From contig MHPK01000003.1 of assembly GCA_001822075.1 (NCBI GenBank), forward strand, positions 9,437 through 73,436: a stretch of DNA of 64,000 nt, written 5' to 3'. Origin of the DNA: Candidatus Staskawiczbacteria bacterium RIFOXYB1_FULL_38_37. Its GTDB lineage: Bacteria; Patescibacteriota; Minisyncoccia; Minisyncoccales; Staskawiczbacteraceae. Position 1 is the first letter of the stretch. The number at the start of each line of letters is the position of its first letter. Below are positions 28,660-58,863 of this stretch, in pieces. A model generated the notes under the pieces. That model had not been told where the DNA came from. It made no database searches and saw only the letters and a list, made by a program, of their open reading frames with translations. The translations under genes and the position numbers were made by a program.

Positions 28660-31600
28660 ATGAAAAAAAACTCATTGGTAATAATTATAGGTATACTATT
28701 TTTTTTGGCAGCCGCAGGAATAGGAGTTTTTTATTACACACATAATAATTTTGCAAAAGCTGCTATGCTCGGCGAACAATGTGGTAAGGGACTAGGAGCC
28801 GTAGAAAATTGTAGCACTTTGCCTCCGCCGGAAAATGTTTGCGCGCCAGGTTATACTTTAGTATATTATGGTTGCTCGAACAATGAAATATGCGATCCAT
28901 CTGGTTACAATTGTACGTGTTCGTCTAGGTGTGACCAAACACCACCATGTTCTTTTCTTGGATGTATGACGAGTTGGGCAAATTCAATAACGCTTTGCGA
29001 TACCTATTGTCTTGAAGGTGACTGTTGCTGGAGAGCAACTCCGGAAAGTCCGTGGGATTGTAGTACAGAAGTTTTTAATGATACTTCTAAGGTTAAAATG
29101 TGTGTGGATACCACTCCCGTAGAATGTGCAACTGATGATGATTGTCCAGCCGACGAGCAGACATGTGTTAATAATGACGTACAGACAACTACATATAGTT
29201 GTATTTTTAATGTTTGCCAACCCAATACAACTACAACAGATTGCCTTGAAGATGTTTGGTATGATAACTATCCATGCAGTTGTGAAGATTCTGTGTGTAA
29301 GATTTATCAAACAGGGCGAGATAGAGGTTGTCGTGTAATTGCAAGCGGGGGATCGTTTGCTGAATGTTTTGACGATCCTTTGGAGCAGTGGATCCATACA
29401 TGTAATGCCCCATATTCAACTGCTGATTATTGTAAGGACAACAGCGTCTATTATGATGTGGTGTCTGAAGTTTGCCCGCCCTTAAGGACAGACACGTCTT
29501 GTTATGTGCAAACCAATGACCACAAAAAACAAACCTGTGGCGCTTGTAGCCCAACAGGCAACAAAAGATGCGGGTCATTTACACCCCCTATTTGTGATGA
29601 CCCAATACTCCAACAGCAATGTATGGCTTTTCCCAATGGTCCGTTGTGCGACACTTGCGCGACCCCGTCTTCTGGCATACAAGGAGAATATATTTGTACA
29701 ATATGTTCCGGCGGCGATTGCGTGCCTGGACCGACTCAATGGAAAAACGAATTAAGCTGTGGCACTCCGAGCGATGTTGAATTTACATGGTGCGCAAAGT
29801 CACAGCCGGCAGCTCCTGGTATTAAATGCACCCTTACAGCAAGTTATTCTGCTCAATGCGTTGAAGAACCTAATCCTATTTGCCAGGCGCCGACAATAGA
29901 TATTCAATGCAGCGGCGAATGCAATGATAACTCTGGCGCTCCAGGCGGTGATGGGGGTGGTGGGCTCGGCGGCGAAGATGGAGAAGATGGCGATGATGGC
30001 GGTGAAGGTTATTGGGGCGGACCGGATGAACCGGGCGGTCCAGGTGGCGATGGCGGTGCCGGCGGCGGTGGCGGAGGCGGTACAGGAGACCCTCCTGGTC
30101 CTGGTGGTGATGGCGGCGGTGGAGGCGACGGCGGAGGCGGCGGTCCAGGAAACCCTCCTGGTCCTGGTGGTGATGGTGGCAATGGCGGTCCTCCTGGGCC
30201 CGGTTTCCCTCCCGGAGATCCTGGCCCTCCAGGCCAACCAGGCCCTCCAGGCCCGATAATTCCTGTAGTTGATTACCATACTGAATGTTTTGGGGACAAA
30301 TGTTTATATATTCCAGGCATTGGTGTTAATGATTGCAATAAAAACGCTGATTGCCAAAATAGTTCGCATTATAAATGCAATACTCAAAAGCAGTGCGAGT
30401 TGAAGCCAGAGCCTGGCGTTAGCAACTGTACAACTAATGAAGACTGCGAAAATTATACCCATAATGACTGCAATGACCAAAATCAATGCGAAGTTGCGCC
30501 TGGCATAGGCAGGGACCGCTGTTTTGTTGATGCTAATTGCTTGAATACACAATATAATGCATGCACCATATTTGGAACCTGCATGCCAGTGTATAGGCCG
30601 GGAATTGGCGATTGCGCTTCAGCATCAGAATGTCTTATTGGAGTAGACATCCACACAGACTGCAGTACAGAAAAACAGTGCGTTGTTCTTGATGGCCCCG
30701 GAGATATTGTGTGCCAAGACAATGCATTTTGCCAAAATAATTTTATTGTTCATAACGAATGCATTGATGGTCAATGCGTGGTTGTAGACGGCCCGGGCAT
30801 AGATTTGTGCCAACAGCCGTGTGATTGCAATCCTCTTATTGATAGCCATACAACATGCACAGTGCAAAAATTTTGCCAGTCAGTGCCCGGCCCGGGGTTT
30901 AACATTTGCCCCGACTCTTCGTGGTGCCGCGCCAACACCCACAATATATGCAGCGGGGTTGATGGAAATACTTGCACGGTTGTGCCAGGGGCTGGTTCAG
31001 ACGCATGTTATGGCGACACCCCCGATGATTTCTGTATAGATGACATGGATAACCAGCGCGCTGTATGCACAATAGATGACAGATGCGAGTATTCATACGA
31101 GTCAGGAGGAATTAATGAGTGTCTGACTCCAAATGGATTATATTCTCAAAATTGCGCAGACAATTATCATAATGAATGCCTCGGAGAAACCTGCGTGCCT
31201 ATAAAAAATTCAGTTCCTGGTGTTGACGAGCAAAATGAATGTCTTGATGATGCATTTTGTATAAGCCAAGACAATCCTCCTGAAGCTAGCCAGCTGCAAA
31301 TTTTACAATACGATTACTGTATAGGTGTGCCCGGAGCAAGAATGCTTTCATTTGCTTGGCAATATAAAGACAATGATGTACCTCTTGAGCCCGAAACATA
31401 TTTTGTACTTGAAATAGATACTAATAGCGGATTTGATTCTTCTGATAAAGTTACGTATTTGCAAAACGTAAATGGATTGTTGTCAGGGTCAATAAATCAG
31501 GCGCAAATTTATATGGTGTCTCCCGGGGGTTCAGTGAAGGGAGATTATATTTATTACGGAGTTAATTATTATTGGAGGGTAATGGTTTTCAATGCAAAGG

Positions 31601-32031
31601 GAAACTCTGACTGGACCTATTACGACGGTTCTGTCGGGACTATAATTCAAAACGATGCGCAAACTTTTGTATATAACGGGCATTCTGCCCCATGGCCAGC
31701 TTATACAATTGACCTTGACCCTGCCACAGGCGAGGCCACATTTGCAGACAATAATTCAAAGTGCTACGACGGCGCAAATCCTCTTGGTTATTTTTGCAGA
31801 GAAAACAAAGGCGGCTATAGCTGGTGGTATGGCGATCCAAATCTTCCGCCTGCTTCAGCTGACGATACAGATTATTTAGGCACATCTCATACTTATACAT
31901 CGGGAACATACCAAACATGGCTTCGGGTTTGCGACCCAGATGGCATGTGCTGTTCAGTGTCAAAGGATGTAATACTAAGAGAGCCTGGAACTTCTAACTT
32001 GCCAGACTGGAAGGAAATTTCTCCATTTTAA
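28660..32031 (+). CDS. giant Cys-rich surface/secreted protein with G/P/D low-complexity linker, about ten 4-Cys modules and a PKD-like C-terminus
   Basis: N-terminal anchor IIIGILFFLAAAGIGVFYY; Cys-rich N-domain; GGDGGG/PPGPGG linker; repeated H..C...C..PG.G...C....C units; C-terminal SHTYTSGTYQTWLRVCDPDG (PKD-type). Confidence 0.8.
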   Translation: MKKNSLVIIIGILFFLAAAGIGVFYYTHNNFAKAAMLGEQCGKGLGAVENCSTLPPPENVCAPGYTLVYYGCSNNEICDPSGYNCTCSSRCDQTPPCSFLGCMTSWANSITLCDTYCLEGDCCWRATPESPWDCSTEVFNDTSKVKMCVDTTPVECATDDDCPADEQTCVNNDVQTTTYSCIFNVCQPNTTTTDCLEDVWYDNYPCSCEDSVCKIYQTGRDRGCRVIASGGSFAECFDDPLEQWIHTCNAPYSTADYCKDNSVYYDVVSEVCPPLRTDTSCYVQTNDHKKQTCGACSPTGNKRCGSFTPPICDDPILQQQCMAFPNGPLCDTCATPSSGIQGEYICTICSGGDCVPGPTQWKNELSCGTPSDVEFTWCAKSQPAAPGIKCTLTASYSAQCVEEPNPICQAPTIDIQCSGECNDNSGAPGGDGGGGLGGEDGEDGDDGGEGYWGGPDEPGGPGGDGGAGGGGGGGTGDPPGPGGDGGGGGDGGGGGPGNPPGPGGDGGNGGPPGPGFPPGDPGPPGQPGPPGPIIPVVDYHTECFGDKCLYIPGIGVNDCNKNADCQNSSHYKCNTQKQCELKPEPGVSNCTTNEDCENYTHNDCNDQNQCEVAPGIGRDRCFVDANCLNTQYNACTIFGTCMPVYRPGIGDCASASECLIGVDIHTDCSTEKQCVVLDGPGDIVCQDNAFCQNNFIVHNECIDGQCVVVDGPGIDLCQQPCDCNPLIDSHTTCTVQKFCQSVPGPGFNICPDSSWCRANTHNICSGVDGNTCTVVPGAGSDACYGDTPDDFCIDDMDNQRAVCTIDDRCEYSYESGGINECLTPNGLYSQNCADNYHNECLGETCVPIKNSVPGVDEQNECLDDAFCISQDNPPEASQLQILQYDYCIGVPGARMLSFAWQYKDNDVPLEPETYFVLEIDTNSGFDSSDKVTYLQNVNGLLSGSINQAQIYMVSPGGSVKGDYIYYGVNYYWRVMVFNAKGNSDWTYYDGSVGTIIQNDAQTFVYNGHSAPWPAYTIDLDPATGEATFADNNSKCYDGANPLGYFCRENKGGYSWWYGDPNLPPASADDTDYLGTSHTYTSGTYQTWLRVCDPDGMCCSVSKDVILREPGTSNLPDWKEISPF
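29935..30255 (+). repeat. GC-rich Gly/Pro/Asp low-complexity coding repeat
   Basis: Includes a 60-nt period: CCCTCCTGGTCCTGGTGGTGATGG occurs near 30089 and 30151. Confidence 0.8.
30271..31272 (+). repeat. about ten tandem ~31-33-aa four-cysteine modules (coding)
   Basis: e.g. HTECFGDKCLYIPGIGVNDCNKNADCQN / HYKCNTQKQCELKPEPGVSNCTTNEDCEN / HNDCNDQNQCEVAPGIGRDRCFVDANCLN. Confidence 0.75.
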
Positions 32032-38977: not shown

Positions 38978-39730
38978 ATGAAAGGAGGAGAGCCGATTTT
39001 TATAGACAAAAAATCAAAAATAGGAATCTTGATGCTCCATGGTTTTTCAAGCACTCCCAACCAGTTTAAAGAACTGGCTGATTTTATTTCAAAAAAAGAG
39101 TTTAATGTTTCAGCGCCGCTTATTGCGGGCCATGGCACATGTCCTGACGACTTGGCAAAAACTTCCGGCGAAGACTGGAAAAAATCAGCGGAAGAAGCTT
39201 ATTTAAAATTAAAAAAAATTTCTGAAAAAGTTTTTATAATAGGCAACTCTTTCGGCTCAAACCTGGGGCTCTGGCTTGTCCAAAAATTTAACAACGAGCA
39301 AGAGGGCATTGTCACTTTGGGCGCGCCTGTTTTTTTAAGGTTCCATAAAATATTGATTTTGCGCATTTACACTTACGGCTGGTTTAAAAAATATTATGGA
39401 AAGCCCGCCAGAATTTATGAAACAGATAACATAGATTTGTCAGATGAGGTTACGTATCCTGTAATTCCCATAAAGTCTTTGCGCGATTTTTTCAGGTTTA
39501 TAAAAAAAGATACCATTCCGATTCTGCCAAAAATAAAAATACCAGCTTTAATATGCAATTCTGTTTCAGATAAAGTGGTGCACCCGAGAAGCGCAACACA
39601 TATTTACAAACGCATATCATCTGCGTCAAAAAAGATTTATCTGTATCCCTCAGACGCCCACACAATAATGTCTGGCGCGCACAAAGAAGACTTGTTCCAA
39701 AAAATACAAGAATTTATCAAACATGTATAA
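38978..39730 (+). CDS. alpha/beta hydrolase (esterase/lipase-like)
   Basis: Nucleophile elbow GNSFGS; HGFSSTP oxyanion region; C-terminal D/H positions. Confidence 0.75.
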   Translation: MKGGEPIFIDKKSKIGILMLHGFSSTPNQFKELADFISKKEFNVSAPLIAGHGTCPDDLAKTSGEDWKKSAEEAYLKLKKISEKVFIIGNSFGSNLGLWLVQKFNNEQEGIVTLGAPVFLRFHKILILRIYTYGWFKKYYGKPARIYETDNIDLSDEVTYPVIPIKSLRDFFRFIKKDTIPILPKIKIPALICNSVSDKVVHPRSATHIYKRISSASKKIYLYPSDAHTIMSGAHKEDLFQKIQEFIKHV

Positions 39731-41462
39731 AACAATACCCGAGCTTTTTTTTGAAACAGCAGAAAAATACCATTCAAAGCCAGCCCTTTTATATAAAAAA
39801 GAAAGTGTTTATTTTCCAATTTTATACAAAGAGCTTTCAACCAAAGTGCAAATTTTTGCTTCAGCCTTGCAGAAGTTGGGAATTGTGGAAGGCGACAAAG
39901 TGGCCATTTTTTCAGAAAACAGGCCAGAATGGGCAGTGTCAGATTTGGCAATAATGTCTTTGGGGGCTATATCGGTTCCCCTGCACACAACCTTCAGCCC
40001 AAAAGCTGTATGCACTGTCTTGAACCACTCACAAGCAAAAGTTCTTATTGTTTCAAACAGCGATTTTTTAAACAGGGTTTTGCTGGGCCAGAAACAGTTA
40101 AAGCACTTGAAAAAAATCATAGTCATAGATAATTTAGCATCAGCTCAAACAGAGACTTTTTCAGGAAAAGTTTTGAGCTACAAGGCGCTTTTCAGGATGC
40201 ACCGCAACGACGACTATGAAAAAACATTTCTTGACCCAGATAACGTTTGCAGCATAATTTACACTTCCGGCACCACGGGAAAACCCAAAGGCGTGCTTTT
40301 AACCCATAGAAATTTTTTGAGCAATGTGGAGGCTGTCAATGAAATAATTCCAGTAAAAGAGAATGATGTGTTTTTGTCTTTTTTGCCATTATCCCATGTT
40401 TTAGAAAGAATGGCGGGCTATTATATGGCTCTTTTCCATGGGGCTTCAATAGCTTATGCAGAAAGCATAAAACAGCTGCCCCTGAACTTAAAAGAAGTAA
40501 AGCCCACTATTTTAATTTCAGTGCCGCGTATTTTTGACAAGTTTCACGACGTTGTTTGGGACAAGGTAAACTCGTCTTCCGGCTTTCAAAAAAAAGTTTT
40601 CAAATGGGCTTTAAAGCAAAAAAAACAGAGTTTGAGGTATAGGCTGGCTGACTTTTTGGCTTTTAAAAAAATAAAAAAGCAAATGGGCGGAAGGTTAAGA
40701 TTGGCAATTTCCGGCGGAGCTTCATTAAACGAAAAAATCGGCAGATTTTTTGCAAAAATTGGAATTATGATTTTAGAAGGTTACGGCTTAACAGAAACCT
40801 CTCCTGTAATTTCAGCTAACAGGGAATCAGATTGCATTTTTGGCACAGTGGGCAAAATAGTGCCCGGGGTAAAAGTTAAAATTGCAGATAACAAAGAAAT
40901 TTTAGTTAAGGGCCCCAATGTCACACAGGGCTATTATAAAAATAAAAAAGCAACAAAACAGGCTTTTGACAGAGACGGCTGGTTTTGCACAGGAGATTTG
41001 GGCTTTGTAGACAGGCAGGGGCATTTGACTGTAATTGGCAGGGCAAAAGAAATGATTGTAACTTCGGGCGGCAAAAACGTGTGGCCGGAAGCCGTTGAAA
41101 ACTTGCTTAATGACGACAAATTTATTGCCCAGTCAATTATAATTGGAAACAAAAGAAAATTCATTTCTGCTTTAATAGCGCCCGACTGGCAGGAAGTTGA
41201 AATTTATATGAAAGAAAACAATATGCGCCTGTTTAGCCATGAAAGAATGGTAAGAAGCTTGGAGCTTTTGGCAATATTTCAAAAAAGAATTGACGAAAAA
41301 ATAAACCCCAAGCTTTCCCATCACGAAAAAATCCAGAAATTCAGGCTGGCGCCGCAGGAATTTACCCAAGAGCAAGACGAACTCACCCCAACCTTAAAAT
41401 TGCGCAGGCACATTATAGAAAAACACAATCACAAAGGCATTGAGAAGATGTACAACAGCTAA
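39723..41462 (+). CDS. long-chain acyl-CoA synthetase (AMP-forming)
   Basis: AMP-binding motif YTSGTTGKPKGV, GYGLTE, TGD. Confidence 0.9.
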   Translation: MYKTIPELFFETAEKYHSKPALLYKKESVYFPILYKELSTKVQIFASALQKLGIVEGDKVAIFSENRPEWAVSDLAIMSLGAISVPLHTTFSPKAVCTVLNHSQAKVLIVSNSDFLNRVLLGQKQLKHLKKIIVIDNLASAQTETFSGKVLSYKALFRMHRNDDYEKTFLDPDNVCSIIYTSGTTGKPKGVLLTHRNFLSNVEAVNEIIPVKENDVFLSFLPLSHVLERMAGYYMALFHGASIAYAESIKQLPLNLKEVKPTILISVPRIFDKFHDVVWDKVNSSSGFQKKVFKWALKQKKQSLRYRLADFLAFKKIKKQMGGRLRLAISGGASLNEKIGRFFAKIGIMILEGYGLTETSPVISANRESDCIFGTVGKIVPGVKVKIADNKEILVKGPNVTQGYYKNKKATKQAFDRDGWFCTGDLGFVDRQGHLTVIGRAKEMIVTSGGKNVWPEAVENLLNDDKFIAQSIIIGNKRKFISALIAPDWQEVEIYMKENNMRLFSHERMVRSLELLAIFQKRIDEKINPKLSHHEKIQKFRLAPQEFTQEQDELTPTLKLRRHIIEKHNHKGIEKMYNS

Positions 41463-41510
41463 TAATAAGTGTTATTAAAAACCTAAGCCTAACATAAAAC
41501 ACTATAAATT

Positions 41511-41720
41511 ATGGAAGAGAAAAAACCTATAGATCTTTTAGCAGCAGCGCCGTTTCTTTTTTTATTTGCTTTAGCGGCATTTTTAGTTGATAACGGCAAA
41601 TGGATAAGAGAATTTTTATCTTTGCCGCCAAAGCATATTTTTACTTATTTGGGAGTATTATTTGTGGTTTTAGTGGCAATTGCAGTTAAAGTTTTTTTGT
41701 CGTTCATGAACTCCGCTTAA
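41511..41720 (+). CDS. small membrane protein (69 aa, two TM helices)
   Basis: ORF track; hydrophobic profile. Confidence 0.45.
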   Translation: MEEKKPIDLLAAAPFLFLFALAAFLVDNGKWIREFLSLPPKHIFTYLGVLFVVLVAIAVKVFLSFMNSA

Positions 41721-41786
41721 TGGCTGGCTGGCTGTTGCATGTTACGTGACTTTGACTTTTTTGAAAGTTGAGGGCAAACTAAAATA

Positions 41787-44700
41787 ATGGAAAAAGATAA
41801 GTTGAACGTCGCTAAAAGAATCTTTGTAAAGCTCAATGTTTTGCTGCTGATTTTTGGTTTCTTGTTTCAGCCGCCAGCTGGCGTTTTTGCGCAAAACGAA
41901 ACAAATGAAAAGCCGCCCACTTCTATACAAATAAGCGATAAGGCCGACAAAACAAAAACCCAGCTTGATAAAGCGCTTGAAGAGGTTCAGCCTAAAGACG
42001 AAAATAAAAATTTTGAGAAAGAGCAGAGCCAAGAAGATTCTTCAGCCGCAGAGCCTGTAGAGCAAGCCTCTGCCGTCGAGGACGAAAAAACTTCTAATTC
42101 AAACCGCATAACTATTGATGTTGATTATGCGACAGGCGCTTTTTCATATAAATATAAGCTTGACATTCCTGCTGGGCGCAATAGCTTAAACCCTATAATA
42201 GATTTAAAATATAATTCCGAAGATAAAAACAATGCCTCGGAAATAGGTTTTGGGTGGTCTTTGTCTATTCCAAAAATTAAAAGGCTCAATAAAAGGGGAG
42301 TTAATTTGCTGTATGAAAGCAACGATTTTTATTCATCGCTCTCTGGCGAACTCGAAAAAATATCCGAAAGCGCTTTTGGCGCAAAAATTGATGATGGCTC
42401 AATGTTGGATTACCAATTAAACAATAATGTTTGGACAGTTACAGCAAAGGATGGAACAAAATATATATTTGGCGGAGAGACGTCTGCCATGCTTGAAGAC
42501 CCTTCTGATTTGTCAAAGGTTTACGAATGGTATTTAAGCAGAATTGAAGACACAAACGGAAATTTTATTTCATACAATTATTATGATGACACAGCCAACA
42601 ACGTTGTTTACCCCGATTCGATTACTTACACAAATTATGGCGGAAGCGCAGGTATTTATGAAATTGATTTTATAAAAGAGGCAAGGCCAGATGAATATTT
42701 TAGTTATGCTCCCGGATTTTTAACAAAGACAACAAAAAGAACTGCCCAAATTCAAGTTTTAACCAATGGATTATGGACTAGAAAATATGTATTAGGATAT
42801 GAACAGGGCGATAATGGTTACCGCTCCATGCTCAATTCTGTAACTGAATACGGCAGAGATGAAGCGGGTGCAATAACCGCTTTGCCCGAAATGAGCATGT
42901 TATACAGCGCAGGAGAAAACAGCTTAGTTAATAACAGCAATAATAATTTTCCATGGCCCGAATCTCAAAACCAGCCGGCCTCTCCTTTTTCTCTTGCCGA
43001 CGGATATCTGCGCGTAATGGATTTAAACGGCGACGGATTAAAAGACATCGCCAAATCATACAATATCCAGATAAACGGAATTGATAAGCCGGTATTTTGG
43101 GTTTTGGTTAACACCGGCCACGGCTGGGCGCAAGACACCAGCTGGACCCAGCCTATTTACTCTTTTGTTGATGGACAGGGCAGAACCATTGAAGGAAAAT
43201 TTGTTTTTTCAGGAATTGACACAGGAGATTGGAATGGAGACGGTAAAGATGACTTAATCAGGTTTTGGAGAGAAGACTTGGGCGGAGGCAGGGATTTGCA
43301 GCACGTTGTGGTTCTTTTGAATAATGGCTCTGGTTGGACGCAAGATAAAAATGTTTCAATTGATAATATTACATATTCTAATGCTTGTACTGGCGGCAGC
43401 ATATATATTATGTCTGGAAATTCGGGCGGACGTTTTGTTGATTTAAACGGCGATGGTTTTTTAGATTATGTTTATGCTTATAATATACAAATCAATGGCG
43501 TACACTGTCCGATATTTGCAGTGCTTTACAATGAAGGAGGAAACTTAAAATGGGACCAAAGCGTTACTGTGCCCTGGGTAAATAATGGCTCTGGCAGCGC
43601 CCCGCTTTCCCTAAACGACAGCATAAAAGCTCTTGATTTAAACGGCGATGGTTTGCTTGATTTTATATGGGCCTTGGATAACTCCAATCCTTATTTTTGG
43701 GTTTTGATAAACACCGGCCACGGCTGGGCGCAAGACACCAGCTGGACCCAGCCCACATACACATATTTAAGTCCATCAGGGGCTCCTCAAAATGGATACT
43801 TCATAACTTCGTCTGGAGCTGGCTGGCGGCCCATGGAAATAAATGGGGATAATTTGGTTGATTTTGTGAGACTTTGGACCATTGACATCGGAGGCGGGCA
43901 TTCAGTTGGCCGAAGCGCTGTTTTGGTTAACACCGGCCACGGCTGGGCGCAAAACGATTCTCTGCTTGCTGTTGGCAATTATACGGCCAGCAATAACGCA
44001 ACTGGCTATCCTATAACAACTAAAATGTCAGCAACCATAATTTTTGATGCTAATGGCGATGGAATGGACGACATAATGCATACAGCAGTTTCGCAGACAA
44101 ACGGAGTTTATGATGTAACAGACTGGCTTATGCAAAATACAGGGCATTCTGCCAATCTTGTAGAAAAAATAACTCTTCCTGAAGGCGGAAACTTTTCGTT
44201 TGATTATAAGGCAAGCACAAGCTACACAGACCAATCTGGCAATCTTTTAAACCCAAATCTTCCAATAACCTATAACACATTAAAATCTGTAACAAGTAAC
44301 GATGGCTTTGGAAATCAGGCAGTTACAACTTACGAATATGCAGATGGAAGCTATTTTTATAATAACGTCTATGACCGCAGGTTTGCCGGATACGGAAAAA
44401 TTACAGTTCAAGACCCTGTTGGCAATAAAACTATAATTTATAATCATTTAGGCAATGGCTTGCAGGCGGGAGAAACGGGTTCTGACCCGGCTGACGGAAG
44501 CTTAATAGGCAAAGCTTACAAAACGCAACGTTATGATGCTTCAGGAAACCTGTTTTCTGAAGCATATACAGATTGGGTGAGTTATGATTTAGGAAATAAT
44601 AGAGATTTTACGTATAAGGCAAAAGAAGTGTCCAATGAATCCGGAAAACAGAGCGCTGTTGAATATATTTATAATACAACCACAGGAAATTTAACAAACC

Positions 44701-47700
44701 AAACCAATTATGGCAAAGTATTGGCTTTGGCTGGCAATTTTACTGACATAGAAGCAGACAAGCGCGCAGCAAACTACACCTATACAGCAGCAGGCCCCAT
44801 ATTGCCCTCAACATTAGAAATTCTTAACCATACAGGCAACAAAGTCAGCCAGAAAAAATTTTATTATGATAACCAGCCGCTCGGCGCAGCTGTTAAGGGA
44901 AACCAGACAAAAATTGAATTTTGGCTATCGGGCGGCGCATACATTAACTCTCAAAAAACCTATACCAACAATGGTCTGGTGAAAACAGAAACCGACCCAA
45001 TGGGCAACGTCACAGAATACTTTTATGATGCTTATGATATGTATCCTGAAGTTGTTACCAATCCGTTATCTCAAAGCGCTTATTATGTTTATGATTATGG
45101 CATTGGAAAACCAAAACAAATCACGGACGCCAACGGGAATATATTTAAAAATTATTTTGACGGCTTGGGCAGAATTTTAAGGGCAGAACAGCCGGACGAA
45201 ACTAACCCTGCAGTTTTAGTTATTAAAACATCTTATATTTATAATAATGCCTCGCAAGCCGTGAGCATCCAAAAAACAGATTATCTGGATTCCTCAAATT
45301 TTGTTTCCAGTTATAATTATTACGACGGCTTGGGCAGAATTATCCAAACAAAAAAATCTGCTGAAAATAATAATTTTTCAACAAAAGATTTTGTTTATGA
45401 TAACCGTGGAAATTTGCAAAAAGAATCTTTGCCGTATTTCTCAAATATTTCAGCAAGAACAGCATCCAGCTCAACGTCGCAGCTTTATACAACTTATGTT
45501 TACGATGCTTTAAATCGTAAAATCAGCGAAACAAACGCAGTTGGTGCAACTTCTTTTGCATACCAAAACTGGCAGACAACAATTACAGACGCAAACAACA
45601 AACAAAAAGATTATGTTTATGACGCATATAATAATTTAATCCAGGTAAAAGAGCATAAAAGAGCTTACACATATATAACCTCTTATGTTTATGATGCAGC
45701 CGGAAATTTAATAAACATCACAGATGCTTTGGGAAATGTGCGCAATTTTAGCTATGACAAATTAGGCAGAAGGTTAACATCCCAAGATTTGCGCAGCCCG
45801 GCGGATTCTGTTTTTGGCGCGTGGAGATATTTTTATGACCGCAACGGAAATTTAATCAGTTCAATTAATCCTGAAAGGCAGATAATTGTTTATACCTACG
45901 ACGCATTAAACCGCAAAACTAGCGAAAACGATACTAGCCAAACAGGCGCAGAGTTAGTTTTGAGATATGACGATTGCAAAAATGGCGCAGGAAAGCTTTG
46001 TTATGCAGCTCCATTCGGGCTAAAAGAAAATTTTGAATATTCGCCAACGGGAAACACAACTAAAGACACAAAAAGAATTGCTGATACGTTTGTAGCCAGA
46101 ATTTTTGCAACAGAATATGCTTACGACCGCCAGGGCAATCAAACTTTAATTACAAACCCTGATTTATCGCAAATAAAATACCAATATAATATGGGAGGCT
46201 ATCCGGAAAAAGTTTTGTATAAAGAATCGAGCGGCGCAGATTTTGCAGAAATTGTAAGCAACTTTGATTATACGTCTGCAGGCCAAATTTCAGACATTTA
46301 TTATGCCACCGGCGCCCACACAACAAACACTTATGACGCAAACAAGCTTTATAGATTAACAAAAAAATTATCTGTTTCCGGAGACGTTAATCTGCAGGAT
46401 ATTTCTTACCAATATGACAATGTTGGAAATATAAAACAGATAATTGATAATTCCAGCACAGATGCCAGAAAAACCGTGGTTTATGTTTACGACGATTTAT
46501 ACAGATTAACTTCAGCTTCGGCAACCAACACAGCCAACAGCCAGAATTATACTGAAAGTTTTGTTTACGACGCAATAGGAAATATATTGTCAAAAAAAAT
46601 AAATGGAGAAAAAATAAATTACAGATACAAAGGAAATTTAAACAATACTGGCTCTGATTATGCAAACCCTGACGCCGCGACAGAAATAGCAGGAGATGTT
46701 TCAACCAGCTATAAATACGACCGCAACGGGAATATGACCGGCCAAGGATTGAATATATACAAGTATGACTATAACAATCGGCTGTTATCTTTTACTGCGC
46801 CGGGCGACCCCGCCCCTTATGATGGAAGAATAGATTATGCCTATGACCACACAGGTCAGAGAATAAAAACAAGAAAATTCGCCAGCGATGGAATTTTTGT
46901 GACATATTATCCAACTATGTATTACAACAAATTGCGGGACGAAATCACAAAGCATATTTTTGCAAACGGCTTAAATCTTGCTACAATAGAAGTAACAGGG
47001 GACACAGCAAAAACATATTTTAACTTTTCAGACTCCCTTCAAAGCTCAAGTGTGATGACCGACCAAACCGGAGCTGTTGTGGAAACAATGGATTACTACC
47101 CGTTTGGCGAAATACGGCTAGACAGCAAAACAGCAGATTTTGCAGAACAGCGCAAATACATAGGTCAGGAATACGACGAGGACACAGGGCTCAACTACCT
47201 TAATGCCAGATACTACAACTCCGCCATAGCAAGGTTCGTGACCCAAGACCCGATGTTTTGGAACTTTGACAGTTCATGGCTGGCAGACCCCCAAAACCAA
47301 AATGCGTACGCATACGCGCGGAACAACCCGATAACATTGTCAGACCCCTCTGGCGAAAAAGCATGGATAGAGTCTAAGTCAGTTTTTGATGTAAGGGGAA
47401 ATGCTGTTGGAATTCATACTTATTTTAAAGCAGTTCCAAATCATCCCGACGAAATTAATATTCAGGGTTTGCCCAAAGGAGCAGAGGGATTTACTATGGG
47501 CGGATATAACAGCAGTAATTTTGGTCCGACTAACAAGTTGATAAAAAATATGGGAACCACTGAAACGAGCTGGGATAAAGATACAGCTTTTGGTGATGGG
47601 GTGAAAATAAATAGCATGGAGATTAATCCGCCCGAAGGTCAAAATGACACTCAATTTATTAATAATCTCGGAAAGATTTATAATGAAACTGACTTGTCGG

Positions 47701-47975
47701 GAATGAATTATTTTAGTCTTGGTAATGTTAGAATAGGGAACACAAGTCTCTTTTATGATGCAAACTGCAACAATTTTTCTTACACACTAGGCGTAAAGGC
47801 AGGAGTAAAAGACCAAATGGATTCATTTGATCCAGGTCCTGGCGTATCTAGATCTATAGGTGAATATGGTTATAAGACAACCCTACCAACGACAAGTGTG
47901 TATAGAGAAATTAAGAATCAAATAAACTCATTAAAAGAAAGAGTTGGTAGTTTTATTAGTTCATTAAATAAATAA
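41787..47975 (+). CDS. SpvB/FG-GAP(VCBS)/RHS-repeat polymorphic toxin (2062 aa)
   Basis: Signal peptide; SpvB-type GFGWSLSIP; six DxNGDGxxD repeats; many YD repeats (YxYDxxGN); RHS core ...YLNARYYNSAIARFVTQDP...NNPITLSDPSGE; ~205-aa unassigned C-terminal domain. Confidence 0.9.
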   Translation: MEKDKLNVAKRIFVKLNVLLLIFGFLFQPPAGVFAQNETNEKPPTSIQISDKADKTKTQLDKALEEVQPKDENKNFEKEQSQEDSSAAEPVEQASAVEDEKTSNSNRITIDVDYATGAFSYKYKLDIPAGRNSLNPIIDLKYNSEDKNNASEIGFGWSLSIPKIKRLNKRGVNLLYESNDFYSSLSGELEKISESAFGAKIDDGSMLDYQLNNNVWTVTAKDGTKYIFGGETSAMLEDPSDLSKVYEWYLSRIEDTNGNFISYNYYDDTANNVVYPDSITYTNYGGSAGIYEIDFIKEARPDEYFSYAPGFLTKTTKRTAQIQVLTNGLWTRKYVLGYEQGDNGYRSMLNSVTEYGRDEAGAITALPEMSMLYSAGENSLVNNSNNNFPWPESQNQPASPFSLADGYLRVMDLNGDGLKDIAKSYNIQINGIDKPVFWVLVNTGHGWAQDTSWTQPIYSFVDGQGRTIEGKFVFSGIDTGDWNGDGKDDLIRFWREDLGGGRDLQHVVVLLNNGSGWTQDKNVSIDNITYSNACTGGSIYIMSGNSGGRFVDLNGDGFLDYVYAYNIQINGVHCPIFAVLYNEGGNLKWDQSVTVPWVNNGSGSAPLSLNDSIKALDLNGDGLLDFIWALDNSNPYFWVLINTGHGWAQDTSWTQPTYTYLSPSGAPQNGYFITSSGAGWRPMEINGDNLVDFVRLWTIDIGGGHSVGRSAVLVNTGHGWAQNDSLLAVGNYTASNNATGYPITTKMSATIIFDANGDGMDDIMHTAVSQTNGVYDVTDWLMQNTGHSANLVEKITLPEGGNFSFDYKASTSYTDQSGNLLNPNLPITYNTLKSVTSNDGFGNQAVTTYEYADGSYFYNNVYDRRFAGYGKITVQDPVGNKTIIYNHLGNGLQAGETGSDPADGSLIGKAYKTQRYDASGNLFSEAYTDWVSYDLGNNRDFTYKAKEVSNESGKQSAVEYIYNTTTGNLTNQTNYGKVLALAGNFTDIEADKRAANYTYTAAGPILPSTLEILNHTGNKVSQKKFYYDNQPLGAAVKGNQTKIEFWLSGGAYINSQKTYTNNGLVKTETDPMGNVTEYFYDAYDMYPEVVTNPLSQSAYYVYDYGIGKPKQITDANGNIFKNYFDGLGRILRAEQPDETNPAVLVIKTSYIYNNASQAVSIQKTDYLDSSNFVSSYNYYDGLGRIIQTKKSAENNNFSTKDFVYDNRGNLQKESLPYFSNISARTASSSTSQLYTTYVYDALNRKISETNAVGATSFAYQNWQTTITDANNKQKDYVYDAYNNLIQVKEHKRAYTYITSYVYDAAGNLINITDALGNVRNFSYDKLGRRLTSQDLRSPADSVFGAWRYFYDRNGNLISSINPERQIIVYTYDALNRKTSENDTSQTGAELVLRYDDCKNGAGKLCYAAPFGLKENFEYSPTGNTTKDTKRIADTFVARIFATEYAYDRQGNQTLITNPDLSQIKYQYNMGGYPEKVLYKESSGADFAEIVSNFDYTSAGQISDIYYATGAHTTNTYDANKLYRLTKKLSVSGDVNLQDISYQYDNVGNIKQIIDNSSTDARKTVVYVYDDLYRLTSASATNTANSQNYTESFVYDAIGNILSKKINGEKINYRYKGNLNNTGSDYANPDAATEIAGDVSTSYKYDRNGNMTGQGLNIYKYDYNNRLLSFTAPGDPAPYDGRIDYAYDHTGQRIKTRKFASDGIFVTYYPTMYYNKLRDEITKHIFANGLNLATIEVTGDTAKTYFNFSDSLQSSSVMTDQTGAVVETMDYYPFGEIRLDSKTADFAEQRKYIGQEYDEDTGLNYLNARYYNSAIARFVTQDPMFWNFDSSWLADPQNQNAYAYARNNPITLSDPSGEKAWIESKSVFDVRGNAVGIHTYFKAVPNHPDEINIQGLPKGAEGFTMGGYNSSNFGPTNKLIKNMGTTETSWDKDTAFGDGVKINSMEINPPEGQNDTQFINNLGKIYNETDLSGMNYFSLGNVRIGNTSLFYDANCNNFSYTLGVKAGVKDQMDSFDPGPGVSRSIGEYGYKTTLPTTSVYREIKNQINSLKERVGSFISSLNK

Positions 47976-47984
47976 AAATAAAAT

Positions 47985-48278
47985 ATGAGAGAGAAATTTA
48001 ACAATTTAATAAATCAAATTAGAAAATTGTTTTTTGGAATATTGTTCGGTTTTGGTATAGAGCTTTTTTTTGGAGTGGGATTGTCCTATTTCTTAGAAAA
48101 ATTTATCACAAATGATTTTGATCAACAATTGTTTGTGATACATTATCCATTATCGGCAATTTTAATTTTGAGTACGTATCTTATCTTTTGGAAAAAACAA
48201 TATACAATAGTTGCCGGCATTTTTTTAGGTGCCATTCTTTTTATTTTTTTATTGGCATTTTTGCTTACGGGTGTTTAG
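47985..48278 (+). CDS. small 3-TM membrane protein, candidate immunity protein
   Basis: Starts 9 nt after the toxin stop; three hydrophobic helices; position typical of Rhs immunity genes. Confidence 0.5.
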   Translation: MREKFNNLINQIRKLFFGILFGFGIELFFGVGLSYFLEKFITNDFDQQLFVIHYPLSAILILSTYLIFWKKQYTIVAGIFLGAILFIFLLAFLLTGV

Positions 48279-48412
48279 TTCGTGGCATAAATGGGGTCAT
48301 GTGATAAATGGGGACAATAAATGAATAAATGGGGACAGCCACCATTTATTTGCTACAATATGTGGTAATTGTGTGGTAATTGGTAATTGGGACAGCCACC
48401 ATTTCAGTCAGA

Positions 48413-48578
48413 GTTAAAGGGGTCAGGTACCTTTGATTGTCATTCTAATCGTGATACACTTAATTAATGCCAAGGGTTTTACGAGTATAAGGGTTAAGGG
48501 GAGGGTTAAGGGGTCAGGTACCTTTGATTGTCATTCTAATCGTGATACACTTAATTAATGCCAAGGGTTTTACGAGTA
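48413..48578 (+). repeat. tandem duplication (75 + 74 nt, ~92-nt period) of the RayT left end
   Basis: GTTAA(A)GGGGTCAGGTACCTTTGATTGTCATTCTAATCGTGATACACTTAATTAATGCCAAGGGTTTTACGAGTA occurs twice. Copy 2 carries the real ATG (48558). In copy 1 the same ATG is followed by a stop after 7 codons. Confidence 0.9.
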
Positions 48579-49245
48579 GATATTGGAAATCAAATTTACC
48601 ATGTCCTTAATCGGGCAAATGCCCGTTTGCCGATTTTTTTTAAAGAACAAGATTATCAGTTGTTTGAGAACATTCTTGAAAATGGCCGTGAAAAGTTTGA
48701 TATGCGTATTTTAGCTTACTGCTTGATGCCGAATCATTTTCACTTAGTCTTGCAACCTAAGGAAGATGGCGGTTTGCAAAGGTTTATGCAGTGGGCGACC
48801 TTAACACACACGCAACGTTGGCACAGCCAAAACAAAACCATAGGCTCGGGGCACCTGTATCAGGGCAGATACAAATCGTTTATCATACAAGAAGACAACC
48901 ACTTATTGGCAGTCATCAGATATGTGGAGCGCAACCCGCTCCGAGTTAATATTGTCAAACAAGCAGAAGATTGGCGCTTTTCAAGTTTGTACCGCAGGAT
49001 GTTTCCAAAAGAATTTAAAATGCATAAAAGAATTTTGTCAGACCTGCCGATTGATATGCCCAAAGATTATCTCGCTTTTGTTAACCAACCGCAAACAAAC
49101 GAAGAAATCGCGGCTATACGTTATTCGGTTAACCGCGGCAGACCTTTTGGCAATTGTGAGTGGGCTGATAAAATTATTAAGGCGTTCGGGCTTGAATCAA
49201 CCGTACGGAGCAGGGGCAGGCAAATCAAAGGTACCTGACCCCTTT
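48416..49245 (+). mobile_element. RayT gene bracketed by 23-bp inverted repeats
   Basis: AAAGGGGTCAGGTACCTTTGATT (48416-48438, and one A shorter at ~48508-48529) versus its exact reverse complement AATCAAAGGTACCTGACCCCTTT (49223-49245); each holds the AGGTACCT palindrome. Confidence 0.65.
48558..49238 (+). CDS. REP-associated / IS200-like Y1 (HUH) tyrosine transposase (RayT-like)
   Basis: YHVLNRANARLPIF, HUH motif LMPNHFHLVL, catalytic-Tyr region IRYVERNPL. Confidence 0.85.
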   Translation: MPRVLRVDIGNQIYHVLNRANARLPIFFKEQDYQLFENILENGREKFDMRILAYCLMPNHFHLVLQPKEDGGLQRFMQWATLTHTQRWHSQNKTIGSGHLYQGRYKSFIIQEDNHLLAVIRYVERNPLRVNIVKQAEDWRFSSLYRRMFPKEFKMHKRILSDLPIDMPKDYLAFVNQPQTNEEIAAIRYSVNRGRPFGNCEWADKIIKAFGLESTVRSRGRQIKGT

Positions 49246-49336
49246 GTTTGACCCCTTTGTTCGACCCCCCCTTTGTTCGACCCCTTTGTTCCTTTGTTCT
49301 TTGTTCCCTTCTTTGTTCCCTTTGTTCCTTTGTTCA
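49238..49336 (+). repeat. degenerate pyrimidine-rich short tandem repeats (GACCCCTTTGTT decaying to CCTTTGTT)
   Basis: Read directly; directly upstream of the 49340 promoter. Confidence 0.8.
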
Positions 49337-51237: not shown

Positions 51238-51254
51238 ATTGATATAATAAAAAA

Positions 51255-51335
51255 ATGGTGGCTGACCCCCATTTCATTTCACATTTCCCATTTCCCCCAT
51301 TCTTTTCACATTATTCACTCACCCCATTATTCGCT
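51255..51335 (+). repeat. degenerate pyrimidine-rich repeats (CCCATTT-type) starting with ATGGTGGCTGACCCCCATTT
   Basis: Read directly; the first 20 nt are the near reverse complement of AAATGGGGACAGCCACCAT at 48328-48346. Confidence 0.7.
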
Positions 51336-54992: not shown

Positions 54993-55499
54993 ATGGAAAA
55001 AATATTACTTAAGGTAAAACCCTTTCAGGAAACGCTGCAAGCAGATATGTGCGGGCCGGCTTCGCTTAAAATAGTTTTGGATTATTACGGAATAGAAAAA
55101 TTAGAAAAAGAACTCGCAAAATTATGCAAAATAAAAAAAGGTTTGGGTTGGAATGATAAAGACATTAAAAAAGTAGCTGAAAAGCTTGGATTTAAAGTTG
55201 AAATAAAAAATAATAGCAGTTTTAAAGATATTGAAAAATGGCTTAAAAAAGGGGCGCCGGTTATAGTTGACTGGTTTACGCGGGGCAGGAATGATTATCC
55301 GGAATCAGAAACAGCCGACGGACATTATTCGGTTGTTTGCGGTCTAGACGATAAATTTATTTATCTGCAAGACCCGGAAATCGGAAAAATAAGGAAAATT
55401 AAAAGAGATGATTTTATGAGAGTTTGGTTTGATTTTAGCGGGGAATATATAAAGGTGGAAGAACTTATTGTGCGACAGATTATCGCAATATATAAGTAA
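54993..55499 (+). CDS. C39-like papain-fold cysteine peptidase domain protein
   Basis: ADMCGPASLKIVLDYYG (Cys) and DGHYSVVCG (His). Confidence 0.65.
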   Translation: MEKILLKVKPFQETLQADMCGPASLKIVLDYYGIEKLEKELAKLCKIKKGLGWNDKDIKKVAEKLGFKVEIKNNSSFKDIEKWLKKGAPVIVDWFTRGRNDYPESETADGHYSVVCGLDDKFIYLQDPEIGKIRKIKRDDFMRVWFDFSGEYIKVEELIVRQIIAIYK

Positions 55500-57750: not shown

Positions 57751-58863
57751 ACATAGGTAACACCCCCATTTTACCAAAAACTGGTAAGATTAGGACAAAT
57801 GTTAACTTATCTCATCAACATGGTATATGAAACCTATTGGGCCGCCCTCAAACGGGCACAAGCCCCTTTTGATAAAGCAGTTCACTGGCGCAAAGTCGCC
57901 AAAGCATTAAAGCTAAGCCAAAAAGCCTGCGGTCGTCTTGAATGGATGATATTTTATCAATTCACAGCAGAGAACAACGCCTCTTTAACCTGTCGTCATT
58001 TCGGCATCAACCGCAAGCTCTTTTACACATGGCTTAGCCGTTTCGACGATTCTAATTTAAAAACCCTGGAAGACAAAGACAAAGCTCCAAAACATGTCAG
58101 GCAAAAAGAAATTACGCAGACAGAAGAGAGCAGGATAATTGAATTAAGAAAGAAATATATCCGTTGGGGTAAAATCAAACTGAAAACTCTTTACAAAAAC
58201 ATTTATTCAGAAGAAATCTCTTCGTGGAAAATCCAATACACAATTAAGAAATACAAGTTGTATTACCACCCGATAAAAAACGAAAAGATGCAAAAGAAAA
58301 GGAAGCGAAACCAAAAGAAGAAACGCATTACCGAACTTGCAAAGAAACAACAGCCGGGCTTCCTCATCAGTTTTGATACCATTGTGATATACTGGAATGG
58401 GATAAAGAGATATATATTCACCGGCATTGATTCCGTCTCCAAAGTTGCTTTTGCCAGGATGTACACAACCAAATCTTCTTACAACGCTCGAGATTTCCTT
58501 CAAAGAATGCATTATCTGCTTGAAGGGAAGATGTTGAATGCCGGACACGATAACGGATCTGAATTCTGCAAGCTGTTTCAACAACAACTAAAAGAACTTG
58601 ACATTACCCAGTATCTTTCCAGGCCGCACACTCCGACAGACAATCCGGTTTGCGAGAAATTCAACCAAACCTTGCAACAAGAATTCATTGACCTCGGCAA
58701 CTTCACGCCCGACTGCGCAGAATTCAACCGTTTGCTTACCGAGTGGTTGATAGAATACAACTTTGTCAGACCCCACCAAGCGCTCGGATATTCAACGCCA
58801 ATACAATTTACCGAGAAAACATTAAAAGTGTTACCTATGTGGCCGTCTCGTGCAAGACCTTGA
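57751..58863 (+). mobile_element. IS481-like insertion sequence
   Basis: 13-bp terminal inverted repeat ACATAGGTAACAC (57751-57763) / GTGTTACCTATGT (58828-58840) around a DDE transposase whose stop lies just beyond the right repeat; no target duplication seen. Confidence 0.6.
57799..58863 (+). CDS. DDE transposase, integrase-core (rve) type, IS481-like
   Basis: N-terminal HTH; DTIVIYW..., HDNGSEF, NPVCEKFNQTLQQEF (D, D, E), YNFVRPHQALGYSTP. Confidence 0.85.
   Translation: MLTYLINMVYETYWAALKRAQAPFDKAVHWRKVAKALKLSQKACGRLEWMIFYQFTAENNASLTCRHFGINRKLFYTWLSRFDDSNLKTLEDKDKAPKHVRQKEITQTEESRIIELRKKYIRWGKIKLKTLYKNIYSEEISSWKIQYTIKKYKLYYHPIKNEKMQKKRKRNQKKKRITELAKKQQPGFLISFDTIVIYWNGIKRYIFTGIDSVSKVAFARMYTTKSSYNARDFLQRMHYLLEGKMLNAGHDNGSEFCKLFQQQLKELDITQYLSRPHTPTDNPVCEKFNQTLQQEFIDLGNFTPDCAEFNRLLTEWLIEYNFVRPHQALGYSTPIQFTEKTLKVLPMWPSRARP

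Follow-up and report, generated by a model that had tools for sequence, protein, structure and literature searches.

Organization of the rhs Locus and Domain Architecture of Its Product

We analyzed a 64,000-nucleotide stretch of DNA from a tiny groundwater bacterium, Candidatus Staskawiczbacteria bacterium RIFOXYB1_FULL_38_37 (contig MHPK01000003.1, positions 9,437 to 73,436; hereafter the window, in whose numbering all coordinates are given), with attention to its rhs gene. The gene is an intact open reading frame (ORF) with an ATG start at 41787..47975 on the + strand, encoding 2062 residues, and it is the longest ORF in the window, as a first-pass annotation of the sequence had stated; the runners-up encode 1123 and 1060 residues. 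Nine nucleotides after the rhs stop codon lies a 97-codon ORF (47985..48278, +) whose product has three predicted transmembrane (TM) helices. From the domain matches, the occurrence of the identical protein in many assemblies and comparisons between strains, we read the pair as a Sec-exported, fused TcB/TcC-type Rhs polymorphic toxin of Candidatus Staskawiczbacteria, with a predicted toxic enzymatic C-terminal domain (the tip) and a candidate immunity protein, a reading to which we give a probability of about 0.75.

The identical 2062-residue product recurs in 62 index blocks, on contigs of up to 0.2–1 Mb, and the gene is therefore neither disrupted nor an assembly artefact. The exact protein has been deposited as a "hypothetical protein" (OGZ63390.1 and others) for several Candidatus Staskawiczbacteria metagenome-assembled genomes (MAGs), and the GatB encoded in the window occurs in the same MAGs; the context that had been called candidate phyla radiation (CPR)-like is thus that of a named CPR lineage.

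The protein begins with a predicted Sec signal peptide (residues 1–35; 41787..41891, +), read by eye from a K/R-rich n-region, a hydrophobic core and a VFA/Q cleavage site after residue 35 (...AGVFA/QN), and continues through a linker rich in E, K, Q and S to approximately residue 110. A SpvB/TcB-type N-terminal domain follows at approximately residues 115–390 (42129..42956, +; Pfam SpvB, 1.1e-14), with the GFGWSLSIP motif starting at residue 154, and this N-terminal region shows a weak match in the PDB to the N-termini of the TcB proteins YenB and TcdB1 (E 1.2e-3). Approximately residues 400–790 (42984..44156, +) are predicted to form a six-bladed FG-GAP β-propeller (Pfam FG-GAP_3, 5.5e-9). 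The six integrin-like DxNGDGxxD repeats reported in the first-pass annotation were all located, in the form D/ExNGD[GN]xxD, at residues 412, 481, 552, 617, 684 and 754, and one of the six is degenerate (EINGDNLVD). The YD/RHS-repeat shell spans approximately residues 800–1769 (44184..47093, +) and is matched by Pfam RHS_repeat (PF05593, 1.6e-32) and by the NCBIfam models RHS_core and YD_repeat_2x (TIGR01643, 1.9e-11), with nine strict YD motifs in the protein; the sequence matches in the PDB are to Rhs proteins, namely 7q97 (2.6e-22), 8qja, Tse5 and Tre23.

The Rhs-associated core, a predicted aspartyl autoprotease plug, occupies residues 1770–1856 (47094..47354, +) and matches TIGR03696 above the cut-off (9.8e-19), spanning positions 1–75 of the 76 in the model. 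It ends in ...NNPITLSDPSG, with NNPITLSDPSGE located at residue 1846, and SDPSG at residues 1852–1856 directly precedes the variable tip; the motif is of the DPSG type of core cleavage motif described in PMC8636562. The remaining residues, 1857–2062 (47355..47972, +), constitute the predicted C-terminal toxin domain.

Relationship to Tc Toxins and to Rhs Proteins of the Type VI Secretion System

On its domain matches, the architecture is that of a TcB/TcC fusion, though no TcA was seen and one TcB-associated domain is lacking. The SpvB N-domain, FG-GAP propeller and RHS shell are those of the TcB-TcC (BC) cocoon of the Tc/ABC toxins (YenB/YenC, TcdB2-TccC3), as are the core protease and C-terminal hypervariable toxin, here joined in one chain; the 'TcdB/TcaC' class of polymorphic toxins of Zhang et al. 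2012 (PMC3482391) has the same type of architecture. The first-pass annotation had proposed HMM searches with SpvB, TcdB_toxin_midN, FG-GAP/VCBS and RHS_repeat models; SpvB, FG-GAP and RHS were matched, but TcdB_toxin_midN and midC have no match in the protein at E<=0.01 (Pfam). Two relatives, P0013 and P0023, do match TcdB_toxin_midN. These similarities, together with the YenB/TcdB1 matches, are what would be expected were the protein the BC subunit of a classical ABC complex that requires a TcA pentamer encoded elsewhere and injects eukaryotic cells. We consider this highly improbable, since neither the scanned ORFs of the window nor the related loci examined include a TcA-like gene, and since the cognate candidate immunity gene argues for a bacterial target.

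Secretion partners, which the first-pass annotation had advised seeking elsewhere in the genome, did not appear: no type VI secretion system (T6SS), VgrG or PAAR gene was present among the window ORFs scanned, no PAAR/VgrG-interacting N-terminus was matched in the Rhs protein by Pfam or NCBIfam, and neither T6SS nor Eag genes were matched by these collections in the neighbors scanned. With no PAAR or VgrG, the protein is not a T6SS Rhs. Those features defining an Rhs polymorphic toxin that could be tested are all present. In common with enterobacterial Rhs proteins and Photorhabdus laumondii Rhs1 (PDB 7Q97) the protein has a YD shell, a core whose DPxG cleavage motif delimits a variable tip, and a partner gene closely linked on the 3' side, and its relatives include orphan cassettes of core, tip and immunity gene and replacement of the tip between strains. 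It differs from them in that a TcB-type N-terminus preceded by a Sec signal peptide takes the place of a PAAR/VgrG/T6SS context, and in its CPR host, its undescribed tip family and the three-TM membrane protein that is the candidate immunity protein.

Exchange of the Tip Between Strains

The body of the protein is conserved between strains, and the cluster members P0054 and P0056 depart from the window sequence at 1 and 3 positions, respectively. A comparison between strains, as the first-pass annotation had advised, located where that conservation ends. The sister-strain protein P0055 (2061 residues) is identical through residue 1822 and unrelated thereafter. At the DNA level, the sister contig (L013) is 99.99% identical to window positions 39019–47252, with 1 mismatch in 8234 nucleotides, and then diverges, which places a recombination breakpoint at 47252..47253 (+), after residue 1822 and immediately after the first DP of the core (QDP/MFW). 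The first core DP region is the classical demarcation point of Rhs tips. Past the breakpoint, the sister contig encodes in order a different tip, a 324-residue protein with DUF695 and helix-turn-helix regions, and an orphan "core + window tip" cassette sharing 86.8% identity with positions 47139–47670 of the window. The alternative tip (L013:8235-9948) has moderately hydrophobic segments and no Pfam match, and the 324-residue DUF695 and winged-helix protein would be an unusual candidate immunity protein.

A syntenic locus (L001) is found in another Patescibacterium, from Hainich groundwater, where an acyl-CoA ligase gene is followed by a 2712-residue Rhs protein, a 263-residue gene product, the orphan P0004 and a 98-residue three-TM ORF. 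The 2712-residue protein is 41% identical over residues 9–1635 and bears an α/β-hydrolase tip (Abhydrolase_8, 3.1e-5), and the orphan P0004 belongs to the tip family of the window protein (68% identical). Other Rhs tips in related CPR loci (L012:10-1309, L001:785-9718) look like lipases or α/β hydrolases; the first of these cassettes, at L012:10-1309, shows weak Lipase_3/PGAP1 matches and is followed by a 100-residue multi-TM ORF. The window itself holds no further copy of the Rhs core, tip or immunity gene; the window strain has no orphan cassette, and a Y1 (IS200/RAYT-like) transposase element lies 3' of the immunity gene instead.

Judged from these sequence comparisons, the joint replacement of tip and partner is textbook Rhs toxin displacement within a CPR population, and the sister strain with its swapped tip, along with the conserved membrane ORF downstream, upholds the designation as a polymorphic toxin. 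The protein could alternatively be mainly an adhesin or teneurin-like surface protein for host attachment, with the tip and small ORF forming no toxin-immunity pair. Signal peptide, integrin-like propeller and YD shell do occur in teneurins as well, a host-attached life is generally ascribed to CPR bacteria, and no secretion-system partner was found in the window. This explanation is very unlikely, given that the Rhs core is complete with its cleavage motif, and that strains exchange the entire tip along with the gene 3' of it and also carry the tip in orphan cassettes, a behavior typical of toxin-immunity modules rather than of adhesins. An Rhs toxin might, as the first-pass annotation suggested, suit an organism attached to other cells.

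A Small Membrane Protein Gene Accompanies the Tip

Homologs of the 97-residue ORF lie directly 3' of members of the tip family in six loci (L001, L006, L007/L008, L009 and L012). In all of these other than L012 they begin 5–45 nucleotides past the tip and are 33% identical to the window protein (E 4e-13 for L001), with conserved G-I-E, Y-P-L and W-K-K-Q-Y motifs. The L012 homolog is identical at 50 of 89 residues, and it accompanies a tip with Ser138 (tip numbering, in which residue 1 is protein residue 1857). The three-TM ORF also goes with the tip in the stand-alone orphan cassettes. An immunity gene is classically recognized by its inheritance together with the tip in orphan cassettes, and from this distribution the 97-residue protein is likely to be the immunity protein. 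More distant tips (25–35% identity) are followed by other membrane-protein ORFs, of 131 residues with multiple TM helices (L010), 102 residues with three TM helices (L017) and 83 residues with a single TM helix and a Cys-rich composition (L016).

Since the candidate immunity protein is integral to the membrane, the toxin appears more likely to have a target there or in the envelope than in the cytoplasm. The immunity proteins of pore-forming colicins have three to four TM helices, and small integral-membrane proteins are likewise encoded beside membrane-disrupting T6SS effectors. The resemblance to these systems lies in the pairing of such a protein with a toxin that acts, or in the present case may act, at the membrane; they differ in that the present tip is hydrophilic and enzyme-like, without hydrophobic helices, and in that the 97-residue protein has no detectable sequence relationship to their immunity proteins.

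The Tip Defines a Rare Family

Residues 1857–2062 have no Pfam match even at E<=1. In a word-indexed search of 5.8 billion proteins, eight relatives of the tip were found, those with a named source being Patescibacteria or Staskawiczbacteria and most being "Rhs core + tip" proteins of approximately 300 residues. When 1.84 billion cluster representatives were searched exhaustively with a profile of the tip, 43 matched at E<=1e-3 and 28 at E<=1e-10 (a few of them repeat proteins judged spurious), and an Rhs core precedes the domain in all cases where the upstream sequence is available. Five are full-length carriers, and the four that were scanned all have the SpvB, FG-GAP and RHS domains in approximately 2000–2300 residues. 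A locus search with another alignment of the family (A1) located the tip in only two GTDB genomes, both Patescibacteria. Distant full-length carriers at L016:4324-5850 and L017:905-2362 lie directly 3' of large serine recombinases, which suggests that they reside in mobile islands. An alignment of 36 tip sequences (A2), used as a profile against PDB sequences, gave zero matches at E<=10, and Pfam yielded noise-level matches over all 36 members. By these searches, the tip family is rare and undescribed and fits no described family.

Residues that are near-invariant in A2 (tip numbering) are His21, Pro28, Pro31, Phe46-Thr47, Asp74, Asn103, Tyr119, Gly123, Asn137, position 138, Asn139, Gly150, Gln154 and Phe158. 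At position 138, within an N-[C/S]-N-x-F motif, the window protein and its nearest relatives have Cys, whereas most other members have Ser, and Cys138 (residue 1994) is the sole Cys of the tip domain. The tip is hydrophilic (grand average of hydropathy −0.57) and has no hydrophobic stretch. From this pattern, His1877, Cys1994, Asp1930 and Thr1903 are candidate catalytic residues. AlphaFold2 (AF2) required the deeper A2 alignment, a 6-sequence alignment giving a mean per-residue confidence (pLDDT) of 36; with A2, the tip model reached a pLDDT of 92.1 and a predicted template modeling score (pTM) of 0.85. The model contains five β-strands, with His21 on strand 2 (17–27) and Phe46-Thr47 on strand 3, helices after the strands, Cys/Ser138 at the N-terminus of helix 138–148 and a long C-terminal helix.

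Comparison of the Tip with Permuted Papain-Like Enzymes

The leading hypothesis for the tip, unproven and held at close to even odds, is that it is a circularly permuted papain-like Cys/Ser-His hydrolase, and we consider it most likely to be a hydrolase or acyltransferase in the neighborhood of PPPDE, LRAT and DUF3750. In the AF2 model, the order of elements is that of a permuted papain-like fold: the His on one strand, a further conserved residue on the strand after it and the putative nucleophile at the N-terminus of a helix. In common with PPPDE/C97 (DeSI-1, 2WP7/3EBQ), LRAT/PLAAT (4DOT) and Ser-based DUF3750 proteins, the His precedes the nucleophile, the nucleophile motif is of the form N-C-N-x-F-S/V at a helix N-terminus after the β-sheet, and Cys alternates with Ser. 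The N-C-N-N-F-S-Y-T-L of the tip resembles the N-C-N-T/H-F-S of PPPDE proteins and the N-C-E-H-F-V of LRAT/PLAAT proteins; PLAAT enzymes work at the membrane-water interface. One of the 36 family members has a weak Pfam match to DUF3750 (E 0.056) over the same Cys/Ser motif, and DUF3750 is a papain-like family in which Ser replaces Cys (PMC10318531).

A2 was also aligned by hhalign with PLAAT3, DESI1 and DESI2. Of the comparison sequences used, those of PLAAT3 and DESI1 match PDB entries essentially in full, while that of DESI2 shows homology to PPPDE entries only. Short local alignments were obtained with PLAAT3 (E 0.033), DESI1 (E 0.0084) and DESI2 (E 0.093), and in each Cys138 is in register with the catalytic Cys. 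Shuffled sequences reached the real score in 0 of 100 cases for PLAAT3, 0 of 100 for DESI1 and 6 of 100 for DESI2.

Several observations weigh against a papain-like assignment. The hhalign probabilities are only 0.6–4.7% and the alignments cover the Cys-helix motif alone, with the His motif of the tip left unaligned in both greedy and global modes; moreover, the comparison families were picked after the motif had been noticed and the three tests are not independent. The cluster II (NlpC/P60-like) signature pairs a GD on strand 1 with an Arg on strand 5 (PMC10318531), and no conserved GD is present in strand 1 of A2, so that this 'GD...R' signature is absent. Foldseek gave no PDB or BFVD match to the model at E<=1e-3, the best PDB match having an E of 0.28 and a TM score of approximately 0.1–0.26, and neither PLAAT nor PPPDE appeared in the top 50, though both are in the PDB. 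The tip thus differs from the permuted papain-like enzymes in having no significant hidden Markov model, HH or Foldseek match, and also in its larger size (206 residues), its His-Cys spacing of 117 and an extra C-terminal amphipathic helix.

The tip may instead be a toxin of another mechanism, either a new fold or a non-papain Ser/Cys-His-Asp hydrolase that, for example, cleaves peptidoglycan or the stem peptide of lipid II, with the papain resemblance a coincidence of motif. A confident model that matches nothing in Foldseek is compatible with such an enzyme, as are the failure of hhalign to align the His motif, the lack of a Pfam LRAT, PPPDE or NLPC_P60 match at E<=1 in the 36 members, and the near-invariant Asp74 between the His and the nucleophile. 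It would, however, leave to chance that the N-C-N-x-F-S helix motif aligns in the same register with each of three permuted papain-like proteins at scores above shuffles, that the order of secondary structure agrees with the permuted papain fold, and that papain-like families offer a precedent for Cys alternating with Ser. We therefore regard another mechanism as somewhat unlikely, and retain the permuted papain-like hydrolase as the leading hypothesis.

A Repeated Patch in the Propeller

The first-pass annotation had noticed near-identical segments 600 nucleotides apart in the propeller-coding region and a third diverged copy. All three copies are present. The first, FWVLVNTGHGWAQDTSWTQPIY, lies in blade 1 (43095..43160, +), the second in blade 4 (43695..43760, +; 92% identical to the first over 66 nucleotides) and the third in blade 5 (43920..43955, +; 97% over 36 nucleotides). 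The first two share an exact run of 44 nucleotides at a spacing of exactly 600, the third sits 219 nucleotides past the second, and the 24-nucleotide core of the patch occurs 3 times compared with 0.00 expected in shuffles. The segment at 43110–43154 has 69% GC within a gene of 39% GC, and its GC-rich codons are atypical for the genome.

Two origins had been offered for the repeat, recent internal duplication and gene conversion, and the sequence comparison sides with the latter. Duplication of a three-blade unit would fit the spacing of exactly 600 nucleotides, which is approximately that of three blades. In the offset-600 register, however, 30-nucleotide windows are approximately 93–100% identical only within approximately 43095–43155, and identity falls to 10–40% immediately on both sides; blades 2 and 5, and likewise 3 and 6, are dissimilar, and the third copy lies 219 nucleotides after the second. 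A recent three-blade duplication is thus hardly credible. As the patch is sharply bounded at this offset, short-tract gene conversion among the blade-coding repeats is, from the sequence, the best explanation for the approximately 60-nucleotide patch in blades 1, 4 and 5. We rejected an origin from a diversity-generating retroelement, since the copies are of insufficient length, they do not differ specifically at adenines and none of the ORFs scanned matched a reverse transcriptase.

The L001 ortholog also carries repeated blade DNA (248 nucleotides at 67–78% identity), and its shell region holds 5–6 tandem repeat copies of a 204-nucleotide unit at spacings of 243–543 nucleotides (L001:5809-7614). 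This tandem insertion probably accounts for much of the approximately 650 extra residues of the 2712-residue protein. Because the ortholog repeats both blade DNA and shell DNA, repeat dynamics are a trait of this gene family.

Genomic Surroundings

The locus adjoins chromosomal housekeeping genes (DnaE, ThrRS, GatB, ThyX, RNase III, S16 and TrmD). Located 66 nucleotides 5' of rhs, a 69-residue ORF (41511..41720, +) is predicted to encode two TM helices; it has no family match and is kept in all same-species loci (L004, L005 and L013), and its membership in the rhs locus is uncertain. A scan for promoters and terminators gave results at chance level. The neighbors of the locus in close relatives include genes for a hydrolase resembling lysophospholipases and for an acyl-CoA ligase of the FadD type. 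Linkage to the FadD-like ligase was considered as a general trait and rejected, as it is not kept in distant loci, where serine recombinases are found instead, and we treat it as synteny among close relatives.

Directly 3' of the toxin-immunity pair, the Y1 (IS200/REP-associated tyrosine transposase-like) gene at 48558–49238 is flanked by perfect 23-nucleotide inverted repeats (element 48416–49245), and a perfect 71-nucleotide direct duplication (48417–48487 and 48508–48578) precedes the gene and takes in its start. Just past the transposase gene, at 49241–49335, units resembling CCTTTGTTC form a short tandem array. The REP-like motif GGGACAGCCACCATTT occurs in 3 copies (48332–48347, 48389–48404 and, on the − strand, 51253–51268), compared with 0.04 expected, and 42 nucleotides around the first copy are 93% identical to L013:10008-10049, just 5' of the orphan cassette of the sister strain; the motif may mark cassette boundaries.

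Elsewhere in the window, the 1123-residue ORF (28660–32031, +) encodes a Cys-rich protein that has a hydrophobic segment at its N-terminus and a long linker rich in Gly and Pro. No Pfam family matches it, its exact sequence is not in the protein collection and the GC content around it is 42–47%, compared with 38% for the window. A stand-alone C39-like papain-fold peptidase of 168 residues is encoded at 54993–55499 (+), and an rve-type integrase of an insertion sequence element lies in a region of higher GC at 57799–58863 (+).

Proposed Mechanism and Implications

In the proposed mechanism, the protein would be exported by Sec and the YD shell would enclose the tip, with the propeller and N-domain closing one side and the core plug the other. 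By analogy with characterized Rhs proteins, the core aspartyl protease would autocleave after DPSG(E), and the released tip would poison neighboring cells. The tip is predicted to be a soluble enzyme with His1877 and Cys1994 (replaced by Ser in most relatives) as its catalytic residues, and it may hydrolyze or transfer an acyl or peptidyl group at a membrane interface, probably on the outer face of the target cytoplasmic membrane or envelope and on a lipid or lipid-linked substrate. Action at such a site would account for an immunity protein that is integral to the membrane, and the three-TM protein would shield the producer and its kin. Homologous recombination over the shared core-coding sequence would then exchange tip and immunity modules.

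The WapA-type Rhs toxins of Gram-positive bacteria, which are Sec-dependent, offer a parallel in their signal peptide, YD repeats, variable tip and downstream immunity gene, and possibly in delivery between cells without an outer membrane. They differ in having cell-wall-binding repeats where the present protein has the SpvB domain and propeller. Known WapA tips are tRNases with soluble immunity proteins.

Two observations count against the proposal of a CPR polymorphic toxin. One is the want of a T6SS, VgrG, PAAR or TcA partner among the window ORFs scanned; the other is that distant members of the tip family lie on contigs of 50–60% GC, taxonomy being known for the close relatives only.

The type of gene is in itself unsurprising, since Rhs toxins are familiar and often prove to carry new tips. 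The significance of the locus lies in its completeness as a polymorphic-toxin system of a CPR bacterium, comprising the main gene, a candidate immunity gene, orphan cassettes and a tip swap at the strain level, and in the definition of a rare toxin-immunity family with a confident model, no solved structural relative and the candidate catalytic pair His1877/Cys1994. Delivery poses a mechanistic question, as Sec export is combined with a TcB/TcC-type cocoon and no TcA, T6SS or type VII secretion system partner was seen. A further reading, which we consider unlikely, is that the tip represents a structurally new Cys/Ser-His family, without a solved relative and specialized for Sec-secreted, TcA-independent CPR cocoons of the TcB/TcC type, that attacks the membrane lipids of a neighbor or host from outside. 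The α/β-hydrolase or lipase-like tips of related loci, with their candidate membrane immunity proteins, and the lysophospholipase-like and FadD-type neighbors in close relatives would fit this reading. CPR bacteria are generally thought unable to make lipids, and if that reading were true, the system could serve both competition and the harvesting of host lipids. The locus indicates that reduced genomes still invest approximately 6 kb in contact or proximity warfare.

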